A stretch of 64,000 nt of DNA from an uncultured Gammaproteobacteria bacterium. Lineage in GTDB: Bacteria > Patescibacteriota > Patescibacteriia > Magasanikbacterales > UBA922. The DNA lies in assembly GCA_964435035.1 (NCBI GenBank), contig CAYSXR010000004.1, forward strand, positions 676 through 64,675, read 5' to 3'. The notes beneath the pieces are model-generated. The model did no database searches. It had not been told where the DNA came from and worked only from the letters and a program-made list of their open reading frames with translations. Numbering within the stretch: position 1 is the stretch's first letter; each line of letters opens with the position of its first letter. Position numbers and translations under genes: made by a program. Positions 4,179-54,973 of this stretch are shown here, one piece after another.

Positions 4179-4207
4179 CTTGACACTTCCGTCTATATTT
4201 GGTATCC
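4179..4207 (+). promoter_or_regulatory. Sigma70-like promoter for rplJL
   Basis: TTGACA, a 17-nt spacer, then TATCCT. Followed by a roughly 140-nt leader before rplJ. Confidence 0.45.
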
Positions 4208-4348
4208 TCTTATCACCATAGACAGTAGCTTCTCGAGAAATATCGAGATTAAATACGCTACCGAGGTAAACCAGTTCCGAATTAGTCGGGACAAAGGTCG
4301 AATTACCGTGTAGTCTGTGGTTCACAAAACCACATTTTTTATTTGTTT

Positions 4349-4870
4349 ATGCCAAAAACTAGAGCACAAAAAGAAGTAGCAATGCAAGCATTGGTTGATA
4401 CCCTCAAGCAGTCGAAGTCTGTTGTGTTCGCCAACTTTCAAGGTTTGAAAGTTTCTGAATCAGAAGAGCTTCGCAGACTTTGTCGCAAAGAAGGTGTTGA
4501 ATACCTTGCTGCAAAGAAGACTTTGGTTGCACGTGCACTCAAAGATGCAGGAATCGAAGGAAATCCAAAATCTTTTGAAGGCGCTGTTTCTGTTGTATTT
4601 GGGATCGAGGATGAGGTTGCTCCCGCTCAGATTCTTGCAAAATTCGCGAAAACACATGAAGCTGTAAAGCTTTTTGGTGGTATTCTCGAAGGTTCATTTA
4701 TTGATAGTACAAAAGTGACTGAACTTTCAAAACTTCCAAGTAAACAGCAGCTTCTCGGTCAATTGGTGGGCACACTTAACGCTCCAATATCTGGATTTGT
4801 TAATGTGCTTGCTGGAAATCTCCGAGGACTGGTTACCGTACTTGGTGCGATTAAAGATGCAAAAGTTTAA
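4349..4870 (+). CDS. rplJ: 50S ribosomal protein L10
   Basis: MPKTRAQKE... L10 family sequence; ATG at 4349 preferred over the TTG at 4343; followed by rplL. Confidence 0.9.
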   Translation: MPKTRAQKEVAMQALVDTLKQSKSVVFANFQGLKVSESEELRRLCRKEGVEYLAAKKTLVARALKDAGIEGNPKSFEGAVSVVFGIEDEVAPAQILAKFAKTHEAVKLFGGILEGSFIDSTKVTELSKLPSKQQLLGQLVGTLNAPISGFVNVLAGNLRGLVTVLGAIKDAKV

Positions 4871-5316: not shown

Positions 5317-5347
5317 AAAAAATCCTCTGTAAATCAGAGGATTTTTT
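5317..5347 (+). terminator. Rho-independent terminator after rplL
   Basis: AAAAATCCTCTG-taaat-CAGAGGATTTTTT. Confidence 0.8.
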
Positions 5348-5362
5348 AATTTTCTAATGTTT

Positions 5363-5457
5363 AAATTATTCTAATTATACTAATTGACCTAAGTGCTTTA
5401 AAATTTATTTTGATTTTTTTTAGAATAATTAGAGTAATTAGAACAATTAGGTTAATT
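5363..5457. repeat. Family A intergenic iteron palindrome, copy A1
   Basis: Left arm of three 9-mers (AATTATTCT, AATTATACT, AATTGACCT), a spacer, then right arm AGAATAATT, AGAGTAATT, AGAACAATT, AGGTTAATT, which are reverse-complement 9-mers. Lies between the convergent rplL and the membrane protein gene. Confidence 0.7.
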
Positions 5458-7715
5458 TATAATTTAAACTTGTATACCACTGTCCCATCCAACACATACG
5501 CTTCTTTTTCATCTGCACTAATCGTTAGTCCAGTTGGATTGGTCCATTGGTCTGCGGTAAATTGTTTTTTGAAAGTACCTTCTTTATCGAGCATAATTAT
5601 TCGTTTTCGTGAAGGCTCGAGTATATATAGATTTCCAAATTCACTATTTGTTTCGATTAGAGTAGGAGATTCAAGTATTGGATCAAGACCTGAAATTTCA
5701 AATGGCTGTTCCTCTCCTGCAGTGAATTTAATAATTTCTCCTTTTGATGTTGCTACAAAGATATCTCCATCAATTCCAAATGCTGTGCTATTTTTGAGTG
5801 CATTTTGTGTATGGGGCGCCTGTACCCATGTAGTACCATTGTCATATCCAATTTGTGTTGGATTGTGTCGATATAGAGTACCGTTTCCTGTATCCAGTGC
5901 GTAGAGACGTCCATTGTAGAGTGCAATGTCTTTCAGTACTACTGATTGATTTGGGTAGCCGATTGTTTTTGAGATAATACTATCTGAGATGTTGTCGTAT
6001 GCTACAATTGTGTTCGTTCCTGAGATAAATACCACTTGTGAATTATCTTTTGCTGTATATCCTTGTGTGAGCTGGCGTGTAGTCTCAGCATTTTTGGTTT
6101 CTACTGTTCCGGTTAGTGTGGATATGAAATATAATGAAGAATCAGTAATTCCTGTAGCGATTAATTTGTCACCGACTAGTACTAACGAATCAGGTCTTGC
6201 GTTGGTTATCGTATCTTTAATGTCAGCTATCTTTTCAGGTGTGATTGTGGTAATTTTTTGTACCCTAATCAGGAGTTTTGCAAGCTCTGATTTGATTTTA
6301 TCAGCGTGCGATTGTTTTTCTGGAGTTTCGTGTGTGAGTGAATTGAGTAGGTTTTCAGCATCACGTAGAGACTCAAGTGCTTTGGTATTTTCTCCGTAGA
6401 GAAGATAGGACTCAACTTCTTTTTGTTTTTCATCCACCTGCACCATTTCTGCTTGGTACGTTTCTTCTGCAATAATTTCTTTTTGTTTTGCTTTCATGTA
6501 CATGACGCTACCAATAAGTACTGCAATTCCTACGATTAGAGTGAGGAGTAATATTTTTCCAAACATTCCGAGACTAGTAATTCGGTCTACTATTCTTGTG
6601 ATTGATGTCTTGTATTGTTCGATCAAAATTTTTCTGCTTCCATTATAATTACTGATGAGCGACCATAGTATGGTGATGAATTTTCCGAGTGCAAATACCA
6701 CAGTCTTTAATACATAAAAGAGTGCTCGAACAATCCATACGAGCGATTTTCCAAGCATGATTAAAATGGTATTTGCTCCGTCTTCGACTACTCCCTCATC
6801 CCTTTTTCTTTTTTTATAGCGTCCTTGTTTGGTTTCTCTGATAGTCGAAGGTCGGTCGGGAGTATCTTCGGTGTTTCGTTTCATACTACCGGTGATAGAC
6901 TTGGCAAGGTGTGAAAAAACTTTTGGTGATAAGGTTTCTTCAGTTGAGCGTGTGGTGTCGATTAATTTATCCATTGATTCTTCTGAGCCAATAATTGGCC
7001 GATAGAGGTTTTTTTCTACACGTACAGGCTCAATCATCTCTGTCCCGGTGAGGACTAGTCCACCAAATGAGTATTCAGAGGAAATTGCTTCAAGTGTTTT
7101 TTGTACTTGATGAGCGGATTGTTTTGCGGGTTTTCCGATAATCATTTTGGCAATCCGATCGCATGAGAAATATTTGATGATATGTGGTGTTGAAATATAT
7201 ACTGCTTCATCAGTCGTAAAATTTCCTTCAATAACTGAAGAAAAGAAAATATGCTCCGGATATACCACTTCATCGACAATACGAGTGAATGAAGGTCCTT
7301 CAGGGGTGGAATACGCTAGAAGTGCAAGAATATCCCCTCGATATGCAAATGAAAGTTTGTTGCCCGTAATCACTCCAACTGCGATATGGATCTTTCTTTC
7401 TTCGTCTTCAAGCAGTACCTTTGCTCGGCGATTGAGTTTTTCGATAACTGATTCAAAGTGCTTTACTTCAGGATTCTCAGCATTTTTTGTTTCGCCATCA
7501 TAATCGCTATAGTATAGTGCCTCTCCATCGGTTATCAATTCTTCAATTATGCCTAATATTTTTCCTTCAGGATGATCAATTTCTGCGAGCACAAAAAAAT
7601 ATCCCTGATTTTCTCCGTCTGGTTTGCCAGGGGAAGCGATGTGGAGGAGTACGTGGGAAAGGTGACTATTTTTTCCTTCGACAAAAAATTCGTATACTTC
7701 ACTTTTTATAGGCAT
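5457..7715 (-). CDS. Hypothetical membrane protein with an N-terminal cytoplasmic domain, central TM helices and a C-terminal beta-propeller-like repeat domain
   Basis: Long ORF with hydrophobic segments ILIMLGKSLVWIVRALFYVL and LLTLIVGIAVLIGSV. C-terminal YVTN/NHL-like repeats (GNGTLY, GDIFVAT). The ORF track start is TTG at 7769; ATG at 7715 (MPIKSEVYEF) is preferred because a promoter lies between the two. Confidence 0.55.
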   Translation of the reverse strand: MPIKSEVYEFFVEGKNSHLSHVLLHIASPGKPDGENQGYFFVLAEIDHPEGKILGIIEELITDGEALYYSDYDGETKNAENPEVKHFESVIEKLNRRAKVLLEDEERKIHIAVGVITGNKLSFAYRGDILALLAYSTPEGPSFTRIVDEVVYPEHIFFSSVIEGNFTTDEAVYISTPHIIKYFSCDRIAKMIIGKPAKQSAHQVQKTLEAISSEYSFGGLVLTGTEMIEPVRVEKNLYRPIIGSEESMDKLIDTTRSTEETLSPKVFSHLAKSITGSMKRNTEDTPDRPSTIRETKQGRYKKRKRDEGVVEDGANTILIMLGKSLVWIVRALFYVLKTVVFALGKFITILWSLISNYNGSRKILIEQYKTSITRIVDRITSLGMFGKILLLTLIVGIAVLIGSVMYMKAKQKEIIAEETYQAEMVQVDEKQKEVESYLLYGENTKALESLRDAENLLNSLTHETPEKQSHADKIKSELAKLLIRVQKITTITPEKIADIKDTITNARPDSLVLVGDKLIATGITDSSLYFISTLTGTVETKNAETTRQLTQGYTAKDNSQVVFISGTNTIVAYDNISDSIISKTIGYPNQSVVLKDIALYNGRLYALDTGNGTLYRHNPTQIGYDNGTTWVQAPHTQNALKNSTAFGIDGDIFVATSKGEIIKFTAGEEQPFEISGLDPILESPTLIETNSEFGNLYILEPSRKRIIMLDKEGTFKKQFTADQWTNPTGLTISADEKEAYVLDGTVVYKFKL

Positions 7716-8414: not shown

Positions 8415-8445
8415 GATCGCTAGGGTTGATAAACTATAGAACTTC

Positions 8446-8554
8446 AAAATTATTCTAATTGTACTAATTGACCTAATTATTCTAATAAGAATTAGAAAGT
8501 GGCAGGGTTTTTAATCTGGGATTTTTAGAATAATTAGGGTAATTAGAATAATTG
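8446..8554. repeat. Family A iteron palindrome, copy A2
   Basis: Four left 9-mers (AATTATTCT, AATTGTACT, AATTGACCT, AATTATTCT), a 40-nt spacer, then right arm AGAATAATT, AGGGTAATT, AGAATAATT, ending 12 nt before the ATG at 8566. Confidence 0.7.
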
Positions 8555-8565
8555 TATTTTTGATT

Positions 8566-16315: not shown

Positions 16316-16412
16316 ACATTGATTACGCAGATTGAATATGGATTTAGACTGAAAATTCAGGATTTTCCATGTTAATCAGTTTAAATCAATAATAATCAGT
16401 TTAAATCAATGT
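16316..16412 (+). repeat. Family B structured leader element, copy B1
   Basis: ACATTGATT...AATCAATGT termini (9-bp inverted). Internal GGATTTAGACTGA pairs with TCAGTTTAAATC through a G-U-compatible mismatch. Ends 3 nt before the frr ATG. Confidence 0.65.
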
Positions 16413-26448: not shown

Positions 26449-26478
26449 TTGACAAAATGCCCTAGTTTTACGTATACT
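26449..26478 (+). promoter_or_regulatory. Promoter of glyS
   Basis: TTGACA, 18 nt, TATACT. Confidence 0.55.
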
Positions 26479-26630
26479 ATCTTTCGATAAGCTGGGGTAA
26501 TGATAAGAGGTGGCTCTCTTTGAACTTTTGGCTTATATTACATAAAAAAGTGTCCCGACTTAGTCGGGAAACTTGGGTGGAACCCCCGGTCGAATGGCTG
26601 GGCCCAAGACCATTAGAGTGGTCTTTTTTT
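26479..26630 (+). promoter_or_regulatory. Probable T-box riboswitch leader (glycine-specific) with an intrinsic terminator
   Basis: T-box-like AACTTGGGTGGAACCCCCGG (consensus AGGGUGGNACCGCGG) followed by terminator AAGACCA-ttagag-TGGTCTTTTTTT. A GGC triplet lies in the upstream loop region. Positioned before a glycyl-tRNA ligase gene. Confidence 0.5.
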
Positions 26631-26632
26631 AT

Positions 26633-26722
26633 ACATTGATTCAAACAGATTAATACAGATTACACAGATAGATGTATTTGTATTTTCAGTTTAAATCCGT
26701 TTGAATCAGTCTAAATCAATGT
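26633..26722 (+). repeat. Family B structured leader element, copy B2, between the T-box terminator and the glyS ATG
   Basis: ACATTGATT...TCAGTTTAAATCCG...AATCAGTCTAAATCAATGT; ends 3 nt before the ATG. Confidence 0.65.
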
Positions 26723-26725
26723 TGT

Positions 26726-28036
26726 ATGTCTCAAGATACCATGGAAGCTCTTATATCATTATGCAAACGTCGAGGTTTTGTTTTTCCTGGGAGTGAAATT
26801 TACGGGGGTCTTGCTAATGCATGGGATTACGGTCCATTGGGTGCGCAGATGAAGAAAAATATTAAAGACTTGTGGTGGAAGCAATTTGTTGAAAGCAGGA
26901 TCGATATGGTTCCCTTTGATGGAGCAATACTTATGAATCCAAAAGTGTGGGAAGCGAGTGGGCACGTGGCAACCTTCAATGATCCATTAGTTGAATGTAA
27001 AAATTGTCATGGTCGTTTTCGAGCTGATCAGGTGGATATTTCCAAAAATTGTCCAACCTGTGGAAAAAAAGATTGGACCGAAGCTAAACAGTTTAATCTG
27101 ATGTTTAAAACGTCCATTGGTCCCTCAGAAGAAAGTGCTAATACGGTGTATCTTCGTCCAGAAACTGCCCAGGCAATGTTTGTAAATTTTAAACAGGTTG
27201 CAAATACGAGTCGAAAAAGACTTCCTTTTGGAATTGCACAAATTGGAAAAGCATTTCGTAATGAAATTACGCCCGGGAATTTTATTTTCCGAACACTTGA
27301 ATTCGAACAAATGGAAATTGAATATTTCATTGAAGAGAATGAGTGGGAAAAATTGTTTGAAAATTGGTTGAAAGATACCTATTCTTTTGCTCGTGCATTG
27401 GGAATCAAAACGGATCTTATGCATGATTTGGAAGTTCCTGAAGATGAACGAGCACATTATTCCAAACGCACTGTTGATATCATGTTTGATTTTCCCTTTG
27501 GACAGAAAGAGTTGTGGGGTCTTGCGTATCGTGGGGATTATGATTTGCGTCAGCATGAAGCACACTCAAAACAATCTCTGGAATATACGGATCCTCTCGA
27601 TAATAAACGAAAAATAATTCCGCATGTGATTGAGCCTTCATTTGGAGTAGATCGAACATTGCTTGCTGTTCTCGTATCTGCATACGAAGAGCAATTGGTA
27701 AAAGAAGGGGATACACGTGTTGTGTTACACCTGAAGCCGGCAATCGCTCCCTATCATGTTGCCGTATTGCCACTCATGAAAAAAGACGGACTTGCTGAAA
27801 TTGCACAGACATTACACTCTGAGTTATTGAAATATTTTAGAGCAGATTATGATGAATCGGGAAGTGTGGGAAAACGGTATCGAAGACATGATGAAATTGG
27901 AACTCCGTTTTGTGTCACAGTGGATTATGAATCAAAAGATGATAATTGTGTCACCGTTCGCGACCGTGATACAATGACGCAGGAGCGGATGAAGATTGAG
28001 GATTTACCTGAGTTTTTGCGAGGAAAAATGATTTAG
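26726..28036 (+). CDS. glyS: Glycine--tRNA ligase (class II, alpha2 type)
   Basis: LCKRRGFVFPGSEIYGG...GPLG class II motifs; about 436 aa. Confidence 0.85.
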   Translation: MSQDTMEALISLCKRRGFVFPGSEIYGGLANAWDYGPLGAQMKKNIKDLWWKQFVESRIDMVPFDGAILMNPKVWEASGHVATFNDPLVECKNCHGRFRADQVDISKNCPTCGKKDWTEAKQFNLMFKTSIGPSEESANTVYLRPETAQAMFVNFKQVANTSRKRLPFGIAQIGKAFRNEITPGNFIFRTLEFEQMEIEYFIEENEWEKLFENWLKDTYSFARALGIKTDLMHDLEVPEDERAHYSKRTVDIMFDFPFGQKELWGLAYRGDYDLRQHEAHSKQSLEYTDPLDNKRKIIPHVIEPSFGVDRTLLAVLVSAYEEQLVKEGDTRVVLHLKPAIAPYHVAVLPLMKKDGLAEIAQTLHSELLKYFRADYDESGSVGKRYRRHDEIGTPFCVTVDYESKDDNCVTVRDRDTMTQERMKIEDLPEFLRGKMI

Positions 28037-28050
28037 TTATAGATAAAATT

Positions 28051-28160
28051 AAATTATTCTAATTATACTAATTAACCTAATTGTTTTAACACTCATAATA
28101 TAGGTTGAAAGAATGTATACGTTTAGGTAAATTAGAATAATTAGAGTACTTAGAATAATT
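28051..28160. repeat. Family A iteron palindrome, copy A3
   Basis: AATTATTCT, AATTATACT, AATTAACCT ... AGGTAAATT, AGAATAATT, AGAGTACTT, AGAATAATT; ends 9 nt before the ATG at 28169. Confidence 0.7.
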
Positions 28161-28168
28161 TTTTACTT

Positions 28169-29428
28169 ATGTACGAACGATATAATCTCCACAATGGAGC
28201 AGAAGTGTGTCTAGTTCCTATCAAGGATGCACAGTCAACGACTGTTCTTATTATGTATCCTGTTGGTTCACGCTATGAATCATTTAAATTGAATGGAGTG
28301 TCACATTATATTGAACATCTTTTTTTCAAAGGTACTAAGAAGCGTCCAACGACTTTGAAGTTGACTAGTGAAATTGATCGACTTGGTGCCGAGTATAATG
28401 CATTTACGAGTAAAGAATATACAGGATATTATATTAAAGCAGCAGGAAATTTTCTTGAAACTTCGCTTGATATTCTTTCAGACATGCTTTTCAATTCACT
28501 GTTTGATGCGCGTGAAATGGAGAGAGAGAAGAAAGTAATTGCTGAAGAAATCAAAATGTATAATGATAATCCACTGATGCATATTGATTCAGTGTTTGAA
28601 AGTTCGCTCTATAAGGGCAGTCCTCTTGCGTGGGATATTGCAGGAACGGTAAAGCATGTACAAGAATACAAGCGTGAGGATGTGTTGAAGTATCGTGATA
28701 CGTATTATGATGCAAGTGCAATGAAGATTGTGATTGCAGGTGCGATGAATGCTGAAACGAAAAATTTGATTGAAAAATATTTTGGTATACCTGCAACCAA
28801 GAAAAAAATGAAAAATGTGTATAAACCAATGGTCTATGGTTCAACCAAGCGAGAAGATCGATTGGTGATTGATCATAAAACTACTGACCAGGTGCAGATG
28901 ATGCTTGGGTTTCCCTCATTTTCACATACGGATGAGAGGTTGCATGCTCAGACAGTCATGAATACTATTCTCGGAGGATCGATGAGTTCACGTTTGTTTA
29001 TTCAGATTCGCGAACGCAGGGGATTGGCCTATATGGTGCGCTCAGGATCGGATCAATTCCGTGACACGGGTTATACGTTTGTTCGCTCAGGCCTTGAAGC
29101 GACAAATATTAATAAAGCACTTGACGTTATCAAAAATGAAATTGAAAAAATGGTCGAGAAGGGTGTAACCAAGAAAGAGTTAGAAGATGCTAAGACTCAT
29201 ATCAGAGGATCATTTACCCTTTCTCTTGAGGATAGTAGTATGCAGGCGAATTATTATGCACGCCATTTATTATTCCAGAAAAATATTGAAACTCCTGAAG
29301 AAATACTTTCAAAAATCGATGAGGTTACACATGATGAGATCAAAGCGGTGGCGAAGAAATTATTCAATTGGAAACAAGCGCGGCTTGCGATTATTGGAAA
29401 TACTGATGAGTCGAAGATTAAGTTCTAG
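28169..29428 (+). CDS. M16 family zinc metallopeptidase (pitrilysin/insulinase-like)
   Basis: Inverted zinc motif HYIEHLFFKG (HxxEH). Confidence 0.8.
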   Translation: MYERYNLHNGAEVCLVPIKDAQSTTVLIMYPVGSRYESFKLNGVSHYIEHLFFKGTKKRPTTLKLTSEIDRLGAEYNAFTSKEYTGYYIKAAGNFLETSLDILSDMLFNSLFDAREMEREKKVIAEEIKMYNDNPLMHIDSVFESSLYKGSPLAWDIAGTVKHVQEYKREDVLKYRDTYYDASAMKIVIAGAMNAETKNLIEKYFGIPATKKKMKNVYKPMVYGSTKREDRLVIDHKTTDQVQMMLGFPSFSHTDERLHAQTVMNTILGGSMSSRLFIQIRERRGLAYMVRSGSDQFRDTGYTFVRSGLEATNINKALDVIKNEIEKMVEKGVTKKELEDAKTHIRGSFTLSLEDSSMQANYYARHLLFQKNIETPEEILSKIDEVTHDEIKAVAKKLFNWKQARLAIIGNTDESKIKF

Positions 29429-29484
29429 AACAGGTTACACGCGAAATTTGAATGAATCGAATTTATGAATAGGAGAAAAGTTTT

Positions 29485-29514
29485 CTGGTTTACTGGTTGT
29501 CTAGTTGTCTGGTG
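29485..29514 (+). repeat. Family E 8-bp periodic repeat, copy E2
   Basis: CTGGTTTA-CTGGTTGT-CTAGTTGT-CTGGTG. Confidence 0.5.
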
Positions 29515-29553
29515 AATTCGTGTATTCTTTTGACTTTTTACTTTTGACTTCAC

Positions 29554-30297
29554 ATGGATATGAAATATATATTTGGAAATTGGAAAATGTATCTTGATTA
29601 TACTGAAAGTGTTGCACTCTCAGAGAGTATTCGAGATACACAGCTACCGGAGGATTTGGTATGTACCGTATTTCCAAATACACTTGCATTTGTAGGTGTG
29701 CATGAAATTTTGAAAGATACTTCGATTGGTCTTGGTGCACAGAATGTTTCGTGGGTACCTCGGGGTGCCTATACCGGTGCTACTTCAACTGAATTGTTTC
29801 ATAGTGCGGGGGCATCATACGCACTCGTTGGACATTCTGAAAGACGGTATATTTTTGGAGAAACAGATGAAGCTGCTAGGAAAAAATTGGAAGCGTGTTT
29901 GGATGCAAAGCTTATTCCTGTGGTCTGTATTGGTGAAACCAAAGAAGACCGAGTAGACCAAAAAGCTGAGTATCGAGTGAAAAAACAGGTTATGAAGTTG
30001 TTTGAAGGGCTTACTACTTCTCAGCAGATAATTGTGGCATATGAGCCTGTGTGGGCAATTGGGACGGGAGATGCTTGTGATGCGGAAGAAGCAGTACGTA
30101 TGATTACGCTTATTAAAGAGGAAATAAAGATGTATTTTCCAAGAGCTATTCCGGTACTCTATGGCGGAAGTGTGGACGAGAAAAATGCTGCTGAGTATCT
30201 ATCCTACGGAATTATTGATGGTGTATTGGTAGGATCTGCATCGACTGATGGAGTGCGGTTTAAAAAAATAATTGAGAGTTCTGTAATCTCTGTATGA
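29554..30297 (+). CDS. tpiA: Triosephosphate isomerase
   Basis: GNWKM, GHSERR, AYEPVWAIGTG, YGGSV motifs. Confidence 0.9.
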   Translation: MDMKYIFGNWKMYLDYTESVALSESIRDTQLPEDLVCTVFPNTLAFVGVHEILKDTSIGLGAQNVSWVPRGAYTGATSTELFHSAGASYALVGHSERRYIFGETDEAARKKLEACLDAKLIPVVCIGETKEDRVDQKAEYRVKKQVMKLFEGLTTSQQIIVAYEPVWAIGTGDACDAEEAVRMITLIKEEIKMYFPRAIPVLYGGSVDEKNAAEYLSYGIIDGVLVGSASTDGVRFKKIIESSVISV

Positions 30298-31466: not shown

Positions 31467-31468
31467 AT

Positions 31469-31498
31469 AAAAAGTCGCTTTACCAAGCGGCTTTTTTT
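31469..31498 (+). terminator. Rho-independent terminator after the tRNA pair
   Basis: AAAGTCGCTT-tacc-AAGCGGCTTTTTTT. Confidence 0.7.
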
Positions 31499-31531
31499 GT
31501 AGTATACTCAGTACATATACTTAATCTATAT

Positions 31532-32557: not shown

Positions 32558-32566
32558 TTAATAGTA

Positions 32567-32597
32567 TAAAAAGCCGCTTTACCGAGCGGCTTTTTTC
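32567..32597 (+). terminator. Rho-independent terminator, near-identical to the one at 31469
   Basis: AAAAGCCGCT-ttaccg-AGCGGCTTTTTT. Confidence 0.75.
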
Positions 32598-32614
32598 GTA
32601 TATAGTAACACTAT

Positions 32615-33358: not shown

Positions 33359-33383
33359 ATAGTATTGATTTAGATTGATTAAA

Positions 33384-33453
33384 AATTGATTATGCAGATT
33401 AAAGAATATGTATTTTCAGTCTAAATCATAATTTAATCTGTTTGAATCAATGT
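33384..33453 (+). repeat. Family B element, copy B3 (degenerate)
   Basis: ATTGATTATGCAGATT...TCAGTCTAAATCA...AATCTGTTTGAATCAATGT; 50 nt upstream of the next ATG. Confidence 0.5.
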
Positions 33454-36578: not shown

Positions 36579-38366
36579 ATGGAAATTCGAAACATTGCAA
36601 TTATCGCACACGTAGACCATGGTAAAACCACTTTGACCGATGCTTTGCTTCGCGAGTGTGGCATGATTACTGAGGAAGGTCAGACTATGGATTCAAACAC
36701 TCTTGAAAAAGAGCGTGGTATTACGATTTATGCCAAAAATACCTCGCTTTTTTATAAAGGAACCAAAGTAAATATCGTGGATACTCCGGGCCATGCTGAT
36801 TTTGGTTCTGAAGTAGAGCGTGTACTCCGATCGATTGATTCAGTGTTATTGATTGTTGATGCTCAGGAAGGTCCGATGCCTCAAACTAAATTTGTATTGA
36901 AAAAATCTCTTGAAATTGGTTTGAAACCGATTGTGGTTTTGAATAAAATTGATAAACCTGCTGCACGACCACAAGAAGCTCATGATATGGTTTTGGAACT
37001 ATTTATGGATCTTGGAGCAAATGATGAACAACTCAATTTTACGACTGTTTATGCAATTGGCAAACTTGGTATTGCAAAAAAGAACTTAACTGATGAGTCA
37101 ACTAATCTTGAACCATTGCTTGATACAATTCTCGAAAAAGTACCTGCTGCTCGCCATGATATTACCAAACCTCTTCGGATGCAGCCATTTAACCTCGCGT
37201 ACGACAATTATCTGGGTCGTCTTGCTGTTGGGCGTATTTACGAAGGTGTGGTAAAGCAGGGTGATAAAGTATTTATCAAAAATGAGGATGGAACTGTCCG
37301 AACGGGGAATATTACCAAAATTCAAAATTTTAAAGGTTTTGCTCGTGAAGAAGTGCAGCAAGCTGAAGCAGGGGATATTGCTATGATTGCGGGAATTCCT
37401 GATATTTATATTGGTGAGACCATTTGTGTTTCAGCTGATCAGGAAGCATTACCTGCTATCAAGGTTGATGATCCAACAATTTCTATTGATTTTTTGGTCA
37501 ACAATTCTCCATTTGCTGGAAAAGAGGGAACCTATGTAACCAGTAGACAAATTCGCGAACGACTTGAAAAAGAGCTCGAGGTGAACGTGGGTCTACATGT
37601 GGAATTTGGTAGTGGAGATCGTTTTACCGTGTATGGACGAGGAGAAATGCATATCGCAATTTTGCTTGAAAATATGCGCCGTGAAGGATTCGAACTTCAG
37701 GTGTCTCAACCTCGTGTAATTATCAAAGAAGAAAATGGAGAAAAAGTAGAGCCTTTTGAAGAAGTAACGATTGATGTGCCTGATATATATGTTGGTACGG
37801 TTATTGAAAAAATGAGTAAACGAAAGGGTAGTATGACGAATATGATGCCTGAAGGTGGTCATACTCGTATTATTTTTGAAATCCCAACTCGTGGTATCCT
37901 CGGATATCGTGGAGAATTTGTAATGGATACTCGTGGAGAGGGAATTATGGCGTCACGTGTGACTGGATTCCGTCCTCATGTGGGAGTTATTGAAAAGAGG
38001 GAAGTTGGAAGTATGGTTTCTATGCTTACTGGAAAAGCGCTTGGATATGCACTGTGGAATCTCCAGGAACGAGGTACACTCTATATCGGACCAAACATTG
38101 AAATTTACGAGGGAATGGTTATTGGTAATGTGGCGAAGGGTCAGGATATGGCAGTGAATGCAATCAAAGGAAAGAAACTTTCAAACATGCGAGCAAGTGG
38201 CAGTGATGATGCAATTATTCTTACTCCTCCATTTGAAATTTCACTTGAGCGTGGTATGGAAATCATGACTGATGATGAATATCTTGAAATTACTCCAAAA
38301 AGTATTAGACTTCGAAAGAAATATTTGACTGAGGTTGAACGAAATAAGGCGAAGAGGTCGAGTTAA
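36579..38366 (+). CDS. typA: Translational GTPase TypA/BipA
   Basis: G1 AHVDHGKTT, G3 DTPGH, G4 NKID; EF-G-like domain order without domain IV; C-terminal BipA domain. Confidence 0.9.
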   Translation: MEIRNIAIIAHVDHGKTTLTDALLRECGMITEEGQTMDSNTLEKERGITIYAKNTSLFYKGTKVNIVDTPGHADFGSEVERVLRSIDSVLLIVDAQEGPMPQTKFVLKKSLEIGLKPIVVLNKIDKPAARPQEAHDMVLELFMDLGANDEQLNFTTVYAIGKLGIAKKNLTDESTNLEPLLDTILEKVPAARHDITKPLRMQPFNLAYDNYLGRLAVGRIYEGVVKQGDKVFIKNEDGTVRTGNITKIQNFKGFAREEVQQAEAGDIAMIAGIPDIYIGETICVSADQEALPAIKVDDPTISIDFLVNNSPFAGKEGTYVTSRQIRERLEKELEVNVGLHVEFGSGDRFTVYGRGEMHIAILLENMRREGFELQVSQPRVIIKEENGEKVEPFEEVTIDVPDIYVGTVIEKMSKRKGSMTNMMPEGGHTRIIFEIPTRGILGYRGEFVMDTRGEGIMASRVTGFRPHVGVIEKREVGSMVSMLTGKALGYALWNLQERGTLYIGPNIEIYEGMVIGNVAKGQDMAVNAIKGKKLSNMRASGSDDAIILTPPFEISLERGMEIMTDDEYLEITPKSIRLRKKYLTEVERNKAKRSS

Positions 38367-38390
38367 CTGGTTATCTAGTTGTCTGGTTTT
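38367..38390 (+). repeat. Family E 8-bp periodic repeat, copy E3 (begins at the typA stop codon)
   Basis: CTGGTTAT-CTAGTTGT-CTGGTTTT. Confidence 0.5.
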
Positions 38391-47148: not shown

Positions 47149-47236
47149 ACATTGATTACGCAGATTAATATGGATTTAAACAGATTGGATATAATTTTTT
47201 CAGTCTAAATCCGTTTTAATCTGTTTAAATCAATGT
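47149..47236 (+). repeat. Family B structured leader element, copy B4
   Basis: ACATTGATT and AATCAATGT outer stem. GATTTAAACAGATT pairs perfectly with AATCTGTTTAAATC (14 bp). Ends 3 nt before the uppP ATG. Confidence 0.7.
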
Positions 47237-48356: not shown

Positions 48357-50009
48357 ATGAGCACACCTGCACAACTGTCTACAGTCAAACCTTGGTACAA
48401 AAAGAAATGGATCTATATAGTGGGAATTATTGTTCTTCTTGTCGGGGGCTATGTTTTTTCACAGTCACAAAAACAAAACAAAGGACCTTCGTATGAGACT
48501 TTTGTAGTTGAACGAGGGACGTTAACTCAGACTGTTGATGCTTCGGGAAACGTAAAATCAGCAGACGAACTTGATTTACGTTTTGAATCCAGCGGTCGAA
48601 TCGCAAAAATTTATACCGAGATTGATGCGCAAGTTCGTGCAGGAGCATTATTAGCTGATCTAAATTTGAGTGAAGTTAATGCTCGAATTGGGGAGGCAAG
48701 TGCTGGTGTAGGACAAGCTCAGGCTAATTTGTCCCAGATCAAAGCTGCGGGACAGGATGCAATTACGAATGCCAAAGCTGCTGTTGAAAAAGCACTGATT
48801 AATTTGAAATTATCTGAAGGTGGAATGAATAGTGAAATTGTTCGAGATACGTATAATGATGCTTTTGCGCTCATGGTACAGATTCAAGCAACCGTGTCTC
48901 AAGCAATCACGGCGGTTGATAATATTTTGGGCATTGATAATGAATTTGTAAATGATGTGTTTGAAACACAGCTTGGTGTTCAGAAACCAAGTACACTTAT
49001 TTCTGCTCGCAATCAATACCTACTTGCAACCATTGATCAAAATGCTTTTGATGCAAAAGCAAATTCGCTTTCTCTCGCTTCTTCTCAGGCTGATATTGAT
49101 GCGGCGATTATGGTGGCTGATAAAGTACTTACTTCTACCAAAGATTTATTGTATCAGGTTTCTGAAGTTCTTAATACATCGCCAGCAGTTGGTGGTTTGA
49201 CTCAGACTCTTCTTGATACAATGAAATCTTCGATTTCTTCTGAACGTTCTCTTGTTACGGCTAAACTCACTTCTCTTATTTCGCAGAGACAGGCAATTCA
49301 GGATGCAAAAAATAGTTATACTACAAATAGCGTTCTTTATGAACAAGCAAAACAGAATTTGATTAATGCGGAGAATAAGGCTGTGGCAGATGTAGCTGCG
49401 TATGAAGCGTCTATTCGATCTTCGCAAGCATCAGTTGGTGCAGCGGTTGCTAGTCGGAATAAATCTCGTATTGTCGCACCGATTGCAGGTAAGGTTGCTA
49501 AGGTGGCATTTAAGCCAGGTGAATTTGTAACGAGTCAAGATGCGGTGATAAAGCTTGTAAGTCCTCGTTTTGAAGTCAAAGTGGATATCCCAGAAACTGA
49601 TATTGTAAAAATTGCGAACGGAGTTTCAACTACAGTGACGCTTGATGCGTATGGAAATGATGTAAAATTTACTGGAGTGGTAACTGAAATTGAAACGGGT
49701 GAAACAGTGATACAAGATGTGGTGTATTATAAAGTTACCGTAGTACTTGAAGAAAAAACTGAATATCAGATATTAAATGGTATGACTGCTGACGTAATGT
49801 TCTTTACTGAAAATAAAGATAATGTTCTCTTTATTCCTCAACGAGCGATTCGTTCTGAAGATGTCAAAAAAATGGTTCGTATTCTTGAAAATGGACAAGT
49901 CCGTGAAGTGGAAGTGGTTACCGGACTTCGAGGAGATGATGGATTGATTGAAATTGTGTCTGGACTTGAACCAGGTCAGGAAATTGTAATTCGTGAGAAA
50001 GCGGAGTAG
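48357..50009 (+). CDS. Periplasmic adaptor / membrane fusion protein (HlyD/MacA family)
   Basis: N-terminal TM, long coiled-coil, beta-barrel and lipoyl-like motifs (RIVAPIAGKVAKV). Confidence 0.75.
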   Translation: MSTPAQLSTVKPWYKKKWIYIVGIIVLLVGGYVFSQSQKQNKGPSYETFVVERGTLTQTVDASGNVKSADELDLRFESSGRIAKIYTEIDAQVRAGALLADLNLSEVNARIGEASAGVGQAQANLSQIKAAGQDAITNAKAAVEKALINLKLSEGGMNSEIVRDTYNDAFALMVQIQATVSQAITAVDNILGIDNEFVNDVFETQLGVQKPSTLISARNQYLLATIDQNAFDAKANSLSLASSQADIDAAIMVADKVLTSTKDLLYQVSEVLNTSPAVGGLTQTLLDTMKSSISSERSLVTAKLTSLISQRQAIQDAKNSYTTNSVLYEQAKQNLINAENKAVADVAAYEASIRSSQASVGAAVASRNKSRIVAPIAGKVAKVAFKPGEFVTSQDAVIKLVSPRFEVKVDIPETDIVKIANGVSTTVTLDAYGNDVKFTGVVTEIETGETVIQDVVYYKVTVVLEEKTEYQILNGMTADVMFFTENKDNVLFIPQRAIRSEDVKKMVRILENGQVREVEVVTGLRGDDGLIEIVSGLEPGQEIVIREKAE

Positions 50010-50016
50010 GTCATAC

Positions 50017-50135
50017 ACATGAATTCAAATTATTCTAATTATACTAATTGATCTAATTATTCTAAGGGTCTGTAGTGAGTTAGAAATATTATATATTTTG
50101 AATTTTTTAGAGTATTTAGGTTAATTAGAATAATT
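50017..50135. repeat. Family A iteron palindrome, copy A4
   Basis: AATTATTCT, AATTATACT, AATTGATCT, AATTATTCT ... AGAGTATTT, AGGTTAATT, AGAATAATT, AGGAATTCT. Confidence 0.7.
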
Positions 50136-50151
50136 AGGAATTCTTTCTGTT

Positions 50152-53630: not shown

Positions 53631-54860
53631 ATGATGTTTAAAGATTTATTTACGATTGCATCGGGAGCATTGCTCAGACAGAAAATGCGCACCATTCTTA
53701 CGGTGGTGGCGCTTAGTATTGGTATTGCGTCAGTTGTTATTATTGTTTCTGCAGGTAGAGGATTGGAATCAATGGTTCTTGGTGAATTGGATGTGTATAG
53801 TCCAAACACCATGAATGTCGAGGTGCGTGTCCCCGGTAAATCGGGTGGGGGCATGACGAGTGGAATCACTATTACCACTCTCAAAAATTCGGATATGGAA
53901 GCTCTTATGAAGCATCCAAATATTTCTCTTGCGTATAGTTATGTCACTAGTCAACAAGTTATTAAATATCGTGAAGAAAATCAGACGGTGACTGTATTTG
54001 GATATGGTGCATATGCTGCTGAAGTAGATAATGTAAAAATTTTAGAAGGAAGATTTTATACACCTGATGAAGAAGCATCCTTGGCACAAGTGGTATTTAT
54101 TGGATCAAAAATAAAAGAAGATTTTTTTGGTGATGACACTGCTATTGGTAAAAATATTTTTATCAAAGGAAAATCATTTCGTGTAGTTGGAGTCCAAGAA
54201 CCAATGGGTGCCTCATTTGGGTTTGATATGGATAGTGTCGTCTATATGCCAACTGAGACACTCCAGAAACGTTTTTTGGGTACGGACTATGTGATGGGGA
54301 TTAATGCACACGTGATTGATATGAGTCAGCTTGATTCTACCAAAGAAGATGTGGAAATGCTACTTCGTGAAAGACATGATATCACTGATCCAGATAAAGA
54401 TGATTTTGAGGTCGCTACCATGGATGAGATTAGAGACACACTTGAAACCGTAGTAGGTGGAATCACCTTACTTCTGATTGCTTTGGTATGTATTTCACTT
54501 ATTGTGGGTGGAGTTGGGATTACGAATATTATGTATGTGACAGTCTCTGAGAGAACGTTTGAAATAGGACTTCGTAAATCGCTGGGTGCTAAGTCACGAG
54601 ATATTTTATTACAATTTTTAATCGAAGCCATGCTCCTTACTTCCATGGGGGGTATCGTGGGGGTAATTTTTGGAGTATTAATTTCATATCTTGTATATCT
54701 TATTGCGACTAGTGTGGGGCTTAATTGGGTTTTTGCTGTACCATTGTATGCCGTGGTACTTGCGATTGGTTTTTCAACTACGGTAGGTTTGTTTTTTGGG
54801 CTCTATCCAGCAAAGAAGGCTGCACGGCTCAATCCGATCGAGGCATTAAGAAAAGAGTAA
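53631..54860 (+). CDS. ABC transporter permease, MacB/FtsX type (second paralog)
   Basis: Same architecture; about 35% identical to the upstream permease by eye. Confidence 0.8.
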   Translation: MMFKDLFTIASGALLRQKMRTILTVVALSIGIASVVIIVSAGRGLESMVLGELDVYSPNTMNVEVRVPGKSGGGMTSGITITTLKNSDMEALMKHPNISLAYSYVTSQQVIKYREENQTVTVFGYGAYAAEVDNVKILEGRFYTPDEEASLAQVVFIGSKIKEDFFGDDTAIGKNIFIKGKSFRVVGVQEPMGASFGFDMDSVVYMPTETLQKRFLGTDYVMGINAHVIDMSQLDSTKEDVEMLLRERHDITDPDKDDFEVATMDEIRDTLETVVGGITLLLIALVCISLIVGGVGITNIMYVTVSERTFEIGLRKSLGAKSRDILLQFLIEAMLLTSMGGIVGVIFGVLISYLVYLIATSVGLNWVFAVPLYAVVLAIGFSTTVGLFFGLYPAKKAARLNPIEALRKE

Positions 54861-54863
54861 ATT

Positions 54864-54963
54864 GAAATTATTCTAATTGTACTAATTGACCTAATAATTC
54901 TAAAATTTAGAATTATTGAAATTTTTTAGGTTAATTAGAATAATTAGAGTACTTAGAATAATT
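54864..54963. repeat. Family A iteron palindrome, copy A6
   Basis: AATTATTCT, AATTGTACT, AATTGACCT, AATAATTCT ... AGGTTAATT, AGAATAATT, AGAGTACTT, AGAATAATT. Confidence 0.7.
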
Positions 54964-54973
54964 TCTCCTTCTC

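Follow-up and report, generated by a model that had tools for sequence, protein, structure and literature searches.

A candidate glycine T-box riboswitch of reduced architecture in the glyS leader of a Patescibacteria genome

T-box elements in the glyS leader

Can a leader that lacks most of the parts held to capture tRNA still be a T-box riboswitch? The question is raised by the glyS locus in a 64,000-nucleotide (nt) stretch of DNA (hereafter the window; contig CAYSXR010000004.1 of assembly GCA_964435035.1). The gene, at 26726-28036, encodes a single-chain glycyl-tRNA synthetase (GlyRS) of 436 aa. An original prediction, made from the letters of the window alone, had proposed that its leader combines a promoter, a T-box and an intrinsic terminator with a copy of a repeated sequence, Family B, immediately ahead of the start codon. 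All coordinates are window positions and the features of the leader lie on the forward (+) strand. The product of the open reading frame (ORF) is a class II synthetase with an HGTP anticodon-binding domain (Pfam tRNA-synt_2b and HGTP_anticodon), which we take to be of the alpha2-dimer type, as we presume is the product of Staphylococcus aureus glyS. Its closest relatives, 94% and 89% identical, are named glycine--tRNA ligase of Candidatus Magasanikbacteria; together with the taxonomy they place the host in the Candidate Phyla Radiation (CPR), within Patescibacteria (Patescibacteria/Parcubacteria group, Candidatus Magasanikiibacteriota), in agreement with the CPR-like genome that had been proposed. 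The sigma-70-type promoter, TTGACA-18-TATACT, is present at 26449-26478 with 11 of 12 consensus matches, and transcription probably starts near 26485. We estimate a probability of about 75% that the leader (~26485-26630) is a transcription-attenuating glycine T-box riboswitch of reduced architecture. The support for T-box function comes from sequence elements, conservation, covariation, mutually exclusive pairing and a small energy gap.

In a permissive scan, the Rfam T-box family RF00230 matched 26491-26609 with 39.3 bits (E = 1.9e-7 for the leader alone and 3.4e-5 over the 64-kb window). This was the best non-tRNA match of the window, and it includes the T-box-like sequence that had been noticed at 26570-26589 (AACTTGGGTGGAACCCCCGG). 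The curated gathering cut-off of RF00230 is 93 bits, which was reached neither by the window nor by two relatives (37.7 and 45 bits; E from 3.4e-5 to 9e-7 overall), and a default Rfam scan of the window at gathering thresholds returned five tRNAs only and no T-box. Canonical glycyl T-boxes at two of the loci used for comparison, L043 (76 bits) and L148 (61 bits), likewise fall under the cut-off. The low score of the glyS leader arises because almost all of Stem I is missing. In the cmscan alignment, AGUG, Stem III, AA, the T-box sequence and the antiterminator, which make up the 3' half, agree well with the model; Stem I amounts to 8 nt against 76 in the model, and the Stem II region is deleted. 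GlyS was the only aminoacyl-tRNA synthetase gene found in the window and the T-box directly upstream of it the sole copy: a covariance model of the leader (R1, described below), which was run on the entire window with its filters off, detected no other.

From the cmscan alignment and the predicted fold, the 5' part of the leader would form an ultrashort Stem I (26487-26536) made up of a basal helix (predicted pairing of 26487-97 with 26526-36), a kink-turn (K-turn) and a specifier hairpin. The K-turn comprises a 3-nt bulge, UAA (26499-26501), and tandem G26502.A26523 and A26503.G26522 pairs; its kinked shape is presumed from these elements. The specifier hairpin, AAGAG-[GUGGCU]-CUCUU (26505-26520), pairs 26505-09 with 26516-20 around a 6-nt loop (26510-15). 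The glycine codon GGC, the specifier that had been expected, is found in this loop at 26512-26514, and so lies in a terminal hairpin loop and not in an internal Specifier Loop with an S-turn. We found no long Stem I with an AG bulge and distal loop, the platform for the tRNA elbow (IDTM), and no Stem II with an S-turn and Stem IIA/B pseudoknot. An unpaired A/U-rich linker of ~11 nt (26537-26547), with no conserved pairing in the alignment, stands where Stem II would be. The pattern GGCA, 4-5 nt, then GGAGC on the 3' side of the hairpin has its counterpart in the canonical glycyl T-box of the Firmicute locus L043 (GGCaGUCUGGAG); the compact form therefore looks like a glyQS-type Stem I minus everything above the specifier.

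Downstream of the linker, the purine string AAGUG (26548-52), Stem III (26553-59 with 26563-69) and AA (26570-71) together make up, over 26548-26571, the RRRxG-Stem III-AA discriminator motif of T-boxes (PMC7583486). The antiterminator that follows (26572-26608), placed by the cmscan alignment to RF00230, consists of helix A1 (CUUGGG/CCCAAG, 26572-77 with 26603-08), a 7-nt T-box bulge that conforms to UGGNACC (26578-84), and helix A2 (26585-91 with 26596-602). The sequence of the bulge, UGGAACC, is the one reported for glycyl T-boxes (PMC11404447). To pair with the UGGA of the bulge, a tRNA would have to end in UCCA and thus have U73 as its discriminator base. As general background that is not specific to the host genome, bacterial tRNA-Gly carries U73.

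The proposed intrinsic terminator is found at 26606-26630. It is an 8-bp hairpin, AAGACCAU/GUGGUCUU (26606-13 with 26618-25; in the DNA, AAGACCAT-TAGA-GTGGTCTT at 26606-26625), followed by seven U residues to 26630. Its 5' end, AAG (26606-08), is also the 3' end of the helix A1 strand. The alternative pairing that had been anticipated can thus be drawn, with helices A1 and A2 and the UGGAACC bulge in competition with a mutually exclusive terminator, though the overlap of 3 nt is unusually small. Direct energy evaluation of the window sequence gave -32.9 kcal/mol for the antiterminator form (6-bp helix A1 and a residual 5-bp hairpin) and -33.5 kcal/mol for the terminator form (3-bp helix A1 and the full 8-bp hairpin), the latter being better by 0.6 kcal/mol. 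When the contested pairs were enforced and the rest of the sequence was left free to fold, the terminator form was better by 0.8-4.9 kcal/mol in 10 of 10 members of the alignment described below. Such a modelled preference would keep the switch off by default, as is expected of a T-box, and is so small that tRNA binding could overturn it. In intrinsic termination, closure of the pairs next to the U-run matters most, and here these are the three contested pairs. In the terminator form, the freed CUU could also pair with the AAG of the purine string, which would dismantle the discriminator.

Conservation and covariation of the compact leader

Is the reduced layout conserved, and do its helices covary? 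The comparison drew on 160 GlyRS loci of genomes and metagenomes and on another 13 that were retrieved through exact-protein matches. The compact layout is common to 11 relatives with GlyRS identities of 57-94% (L161-L168, L036, L173 and L170), which represent independent metagenome-assembled genomes (MAGs) and metagenomes. In L161-L168 (~68-94% GlyRS identity) and in L036, another of the Magasanikbacteria with 57% GlyRS identity and a much higher GC content, the compact leader lies behind the same TTGACA...TATACT promoter. Even at 57% GlyRS identity the leader can still be aligned, which is not true of the intergenic sequence on its flanks. When the hand-drawn structure was scored on a plain MAFFT alignment of ten leaders (alignment A1), 97.6% of the cells were paired and 18 of 29 pairs were altered on both sides. 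None of 500 column shuffles of this alignment reached any of five measures, and sliding the partners by 1-3 columns lowered pairing to 29-59%. The covariance model R1, built from alignment A1, recovered two leaders on which it had not been trained: L173 (65% identity) with 99.6 bits and the hairpin ACAGG-[GUGGCA]-CCUGU, and L170 (62% identity) with 56.7 bits and the hairpin GGGGA-[GUGGCU]-UCCCU. With these two sequences, which were not used in model building, added to give a 12-sequence alignment (alignment A3), 97.1% of the cells pair and 21 of 29 pairs are altered on both sides.

The GGC triplet is unchanged in all 12 members, while each of the five flanking stem pairs varies on both sides. 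The loops (GUGGCU, GUGGCA, UUGGCA, UUGGCC and AAGGCA) follow the pattern N-U-G-G-C-N, with U before GGC in 11 of 12 and A (6), U (5) or C (1) after it. The four K-turn purines (G.A/A.G) are invariant; the C-stem and the upper stem each covary, at 4-5 pairs (4 of 4 for the C-stem). Between the two halves of the K-turn, every member has the 16 nt of the 5-bp stem and 6-nt loop and a single mismatched pair beside them. All positions of Stem III pair (100%), and 4 of its 5 pairs are altered on both sides; helix A2, which ranges from 5 to 7 bp among members, covaries at 4 of 5 pairs. The UGGAACC bulge does not vary among the 12 members; the ten members of alignment A1 and L173 all share CUUGGGUGGAACC, and L170 carries ACGGGUGGAACC in its place. 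The terminator is kept in the same ten members and L173, with covariation at its apex, and a substitution of G for A at position 143 of alignment A1 (A143G), present in L168 and L036, still pairs in both folds (U.G and G.U). L170 has a conventional terminator, which takes up all of the 3' strand of helix A1 (CCCCGAUAC...GUGUCGGGG and U6); this full overlap is evidence that leaders of this group act by attenuating transcription. The T-box proposed for the leader is therefore supported by the RF00230 match, the GGC specifier, the antiterminator and covariation in 12 genomes; the reduced Stem I, the lack of Stem II and the 3-nt overlap of terminator and antiterminator had not been foreseen.

L170 (1327-1475 of the Magasanikbacteria MAG JAZDMW010000016) is a still smaller variant, in which the K-turn and GGC hairpin are kept, Stem III is missing and the A-rich linker leads directly into CGGGUGGAACC; it is a single sequence. 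In most relatives (L161-L167 and L036), a motif AUUC(A/U)AAAU lies directly 3' of the terminator U-run, where it could be part of the terminator or a translation signal independent of a Shine-Dalgarno (SD) sequence; in the window it is displaced or replaced by the Family B element. Translational control by the leader was considered and rejected: SD-like motifs are nearly absent (4 of 42 genes), the start region has no pairing partner in the relatives, and the U-run terminator is conserved.

Several observations weigh against a T-box that responds to tRNA-Gly. The RF00230 score of the leader lies under the curated cut-off. The 12 sequences are related, with an effective sequence number of 1.88, and alignment A3 was fitted to the model. 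Helix A1 does not covary in the main clade. The basal pair of helix A2 is C-G in 8 of 12 members and not the conserved G.U that serves as a steric sensor; the remaining members have G-C (two), U-A (one) and U.G (one). With an overlap of 3 nt, a 3-bp helix A1 and helix A2 are compatible with the terminator, so that the switch is less clear-cut than in canonical T-boxes. No tRNA-Gly gene was found in the window or the fetched loci, and 71 related loci yielded no tRNA genes at all. Finally, the IDTM and Stem II are both missing, which leaves the predicted affinity for tRNA unexplained (PMC7583486).

Could the leader be a decaying or simplified relic of a T-box? It would then be a constitutive or weakly tRNA-responsive attenuator whose hairpin no longer selects tRNA-Gly; in one version, it would sense the 3' end of uncharged tRNAs in general. 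The missing capture elements (IDTM platform or Stem II), the replaced G.U sensor pair and an antiterminator core that can coexist with the terminator are all in keeping with this, as are the outright loss of the T-box in the neighbouring lineages L169 and L171/L172 and the loss of Stem III in L170. However, a relic would not be expected to have a covarying Stem I. Here all 12 members have GGC although each pair of its stem varies on both sides, the G.A positions of the K-turn do not change, and the leader remains alignable to 57% GlyRS identity when its flanks do not. We consider a relic unlikely and favor the reading of the leader as a glycine T-box.

Comparison with known T-boxes and a proposed mechanism

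How does the leader differ from known T-boxes? With the glyQS/glyQ T-boxes of Bacilli (RF00230; B. subtilis, G. kaustophilus, O. iheyensis), it shares a Stem I with a basal K-turn and the lack of a Stem II. Also common to both are a GGC specifier mostly followed by A, then a short helix and GAGC; a single-stranded linker; RRRxG-Stem III-AA; a UGGAACC bulge between helices A1 and A2; an intrinsic terminator platform; and a position upstream of a GlyRS gene. Unlike the Bacilli forms, the leader has no AG bulge, distal loop, IDTM elbow platform or hinge. Its Stem I measures ~50 nt rather than ~100 and ends in a 6-nt specifier loop, whereas that of the Bacilli has an internal loop; its basal helix A2 pair is C-G and not G.U; and its terminator shares only 3 nt with the antiterminator. 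The absence of Stem II is in itself normal for glycyl T-boxes, which manage without it because of strong GGC:GCC pairing (PMC7583486). The Staphylococcus aureus glyS T-box resembles the leader in its glycine specifier, transcription attenuation and single-chain glyS, but is larger and not smaller, with a full-length Stem I and an additional insertion, stem Sa, in the terminator/antiterminator domain (PMC4574755, PMC9177973).

A naturally truncated Stem I without an elbow platform is also found in the Actinobacterial ileS T-boxes (M. tuberculosis and N. farcinica structures), and in these, as is predicted for this leader, only the anticodon and the 3' NCCA end of the tRNA are recognised (PMC7583486, PMC12990946, PMC11297988). 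The Actinobacterial forms are translational, acting through an SD sequestrator, are specific for isoleucine and have a Stem II with S-turn and a IIA/B pseudoknot that are essential for tRNA binding. By contrast, the leader described here has a terminator, no Stem II or pseudoknot and a glycine specifier, and occurs in Patescibacteria. Sherwood et al. (2015) reportedly described Actinobacterial ileS T-boxes with an intermediate or 'ultrashort' Stem I. The ultrashort forms are translational ileS T-boxes of Actinobacteria; variants with a truncated Stem I show hardly any tRNA binding unless Stem II is present, as they depend on it and on the IIA/B pseudoknot, and the elbow-binding platform is held to be essential for transcriptional T-boxes (PMC7583486).

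How widely does the compact form occur? Among the 160 GlyRS loci, R1 found it only in L036 (L161-L168 being training sequences), and L043 scored 19 bits under this model. In a scan for motif plus geometry, the T-box discriminators judged credible were confined to the Magasanikbacteria group, L031, L043 and L148; L064, L151 and L156 were rejected as candidates because they have no U-run. Scanning viral contigs for the core motif gave no match. The compact T-box is missing from the neighbouring lineages L169 and L171/L172, which, judged by their sequences, have lost it. Another CPR glyS leader, that of L031 (1060-1410 of the Parcubacteria group MAG JBAZXV010000008), combines a T-box core (CUCGGGUGGAACC) with the 5' hairpin AAGGU-[UUGGCA]-GCCUU and a classical overlapping terminator; it has an AT-rich self-pairing insertion of ~140 nt within the antiterminator loop, and no clear Stem I could be drawn for it. 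L148 (600-768 of metagenome contig OBJA01000426.1) is a canonical-length glycyl-type T-box (61.5 bits) that lies ~730 nt upstream of the GlyRS match and presumably controls the intervening gene or a longer operon.

On RF00230, the compact leaders score 38-45 bits or less and the canonical glycyl examples 61-76. Routine annotation would miss T-boxes with such sub-threshold scores, and reduced T-boxes are probably under-counted because the element is invisible at the Rfam threshold. In TBDB, the class I set was drawn from RF00230 and a truncated-Stem-I model was searched in Actinobacteria (PMC7778990). In open-access papers and preprints, we found no report of a T-box in Patescibacteria, the Candidate Phyla Radiation or Parcubacteria, and no description of a terminator-based T-box that lacks both the elbow platform and Stem II. 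By its sequence features, the leader appears to be a new reduced architectural variant of the T-box, in a phylum for which no prior report was found. The original prediction had considered a T-box notable outside Firmicutes-like lineages. This holds insofar as we found no earlier case in Patescibacteria; however, T-boxes are already known outside Firmicutes, in Actinobacteria, Chloroflexi, Deinococcus-Thermus and some Deltaproteobacteria, and the phylum alone is less notable than the architecture.

How might so small a leader sense tRNA-Gly? In the mechanism that we propose, transcription would start at the conserved promoter and the nascent RNA would fold into the K-turn and the small hairpin, whose 6-nt loop would display GGC and pair with the GCC anticodon of tRNA-Gly in a loop-loop (kissing) contact. 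Beyond the A-rich linker, the discriminator UGGA would pair with the 3' UCCA of uncharged tRNA-Gly, and the bound state would hold the 6-bp helix A1 (CUUGGG/CCCAAG) closed. With helix A1 closed, AAG would be unavailable for the bottom three pairs of the terminator at the U-run, and RNA polymerase would read into glyS. If tRNA-Gly were charged or absent, the slightly more stable full terminator would form by 3-bp branch migration, and transcription would stop at 26630. Binding of tRNA, sensing of aminoacylation and read-through are all inferred here from the sequence of the leader. As a working idea, the 5-bp stem and U-GGC-R loop might act like an anticodon arm and form a stable loop-loop complex with the tRNA-Gly anticodon loop, while the K-turn would direct the linker and discriminator toward the acceptor end of the tRNA; a helper protein is the alternative.

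Taken to its limit, this mechanism describes a natural minimal transcriptional T-box of ~120-145 nt. A 3-bp GGC:GCC kiss and 4 bp of UGGA:UCCA would suffice for capture and proof-reading of tRNA-Gly, with no platform or Stem II and a branch migration of 3 nt. We view this proposal as tentative, with chances a little short of even. If it were true, elements that are now deemed essential for co-transcriptional tRNA capture would be dispensable. No smaller tRNA-sensing riboswitch would be known, and the leader would have arisen through genome reduction in CPR or would represent an ancestral T-box core.

Could a protein stand in for the missing contacts? The K-turn and hairpin might be the operator for an L7Ae-type K-turn binder or for GlyRS, which would replace the tRNA or supply the affinity. 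The K-turn is well formed and invariant, the missing RNA-RNA contacts call for compensation, and proteins that bind K-turns assist some T-boxes (PMC7583486). However, the loop bears the codon GGC and not the anticodon GCC, and so is no mimic of tRNA-Gly for GlyRS; for this reason, we ruled out autoregulation of GlyRS by tRNA mimicry. The discriminator features for the tRNA 3' end, moreover, are all intact. Protein-dependent control appears highly unlikely, and direct sensing of tRNA-Gly remains the reading that we prefer.

Transcriptional T-boxes are currently thought to need the long Stem I platform for tRNA capture that is fast enough, and truncated forms to need Stem II (PMC7583486). A conserved, covarying, terminator-based glycine T-box with neither platform nor Stem II is a direct test of this rule. 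Its small size makes the leader readily amenable to in vitro transcription, binding and structural work, and a tRNA sensor of 120 nt would appeal to synthetic biology as a component. The leader would extend tRNA-sensing riboswitches to Patescibacteria, whose genomes are minimal and whose regulation is little known, with glyS among the few genes that have a recognisable cis-regulator. With a dedicated covariance model such as R1, CPR genomes could be searched for T-boxes of other amino-acid specificities.

The Family B element and other features of the window

Does the rest of the leader add a second layer of control? The space between the terminator and the ATG is filled, as had been proposed, by the Family B copy B2 (26633-26722), an AT-rich inverted repeat of 89 nt with no assigned strand (ACATTGATT...AATCAATGT). 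It ends 3 nt before the ATG at 26726 and is predicted to form a hairpin of -23.3 kcal/mol (z-score -5.2). The window holds four Family B copies (16318-16410, 26633-26722, 33364-33451 and 47151-47234), and the Family B pattern has 5 matches in it against 0.07 expected by chance. The copies have a mean column identity of 74% and hairpins of -22 to -33 kcal/mol (z-scores -3.3 to -8.8). B1 and B4 begin directly after the TAA of the upstream gene and end 5 nt before the next ATG, and B1, B2 and B4 all end in AATCAATGTTRTATG at the start codon. The genes behind the copies are unrelated (frr, glyS, a methyltransferase and uppP). The arms are composed of GATT/AATC sub-repeats at ~10-nt spacing, which suggests phased protein-binding sites or an RNA function close to the start.

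Further to its placement, B2 had been taken to act post-transcriptionally, as a part of the transcript downstream of the attenuator. The placement is correct, in that B2 lies downstream of the attenuator and is co-transcribed, but this position implies co-transcription only and not regulation. A hairpin of -23 kcal/mol (z-score -5.2) within the transcript, ending 3 nt before the AUG, could be a second post-transcriptional layer on glyS that governs access to the start site or the processing or stability of the mRNA. With SD motifs so scarce (4 of 42), structure at the start could matter, and three of the four copies end with the same AATCAATGTTRTATG spacing at the start codon. However, B2 is absent from 11 of 11 related leaders, including the one whose GlyRS is 94% identical, and a search of 169 fetched loci turned up no B-like element. 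The genes that follow the other copies are unrelated, the predicted fold of the full leader keeps B2 separate from the T-box, and the overall pattern is that of an interspersed, possibly mobile repeat. We regard a second layer of this kind as quite unlikely. Because it is missing from all relatives, even the 94% one, B2 is a recent strain-specific insertion that is not part of the riboswitch and would be carried in read-through transcripts. In the relatives, 16-45 nt separate the U-run from the ATG, with a conserved AUUCAAAAU and then 10-40 nt before the ATG. No promoter that could bypass the attenuator was predicted within B2, and no target-site duplication was identifiable against the empty site in L161.

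REP/BIME, Correia-type and MITE-like repeats resemble Family B in being short (~90 nt) and AT-rich, with terminal inverted repeats and several intergenic copies, and in being co-transcribed, hairpin-forming and variably present between close strains. Unlike them, Family B has no sequence relation to these classes and no recognisable target-site duplication, and its copies, composed of the GATT/AATC sub-repeats, abut stop and start codons exactly; mobility is only a possibility.

A Shine-Dalgarno-like tetramer lies within 22 nt upstream of only 4 of the 42 genes in the window, and translation initiation in the host genome appears to be largely SD-independent. The order glyS, M16-family peptidase, triosephosphate isomerase (26726-30297 in the window) is common to L161-L168 and L170-L172; across the clade that shares this order, the upstream neighbour gene and the presence of the T-box differ. 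A second repeat family, Family A, consists of palindromic repeats at 5338-5458, 8422-8560, 28026-28167, 50002-50145 and 54840-54970, built of ~9-10-nt units like AATTATTCT/TTAGAATAA. Its copies appear in the gaps between long ORFs, as was checked directly for 28026-28167, which fills the gap from the glyS stop (28036) to the M16 peptidase start (28169). With this copy on its 3' side and B2 on its 5' side, glyS is flanked by repeat elements on both sides.

Elsewhere in the window, the ribosomal protein L10 leader RF00557 matched 4198-4350 with 37 bits (E = 0.023), below its gathering score of 44. Because the match lies directly upstream of the confirmed ORFs for L10 (4343-4870) and L7/L12 (4895-5299), it is probably a genuine autoregulatory L10 leader. 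Two terminator-like hairpins, AAAAAGCCGCTTTACCGAGCGGCTTTTTT, occur at 31467-31501 and 32566-32600 and are 91% identical, and a short repeat, GTTTACTGGTTGTCTAGTTGTCTGGT, is present at two intergenic sites, 29480-29513 and 38362-38387.

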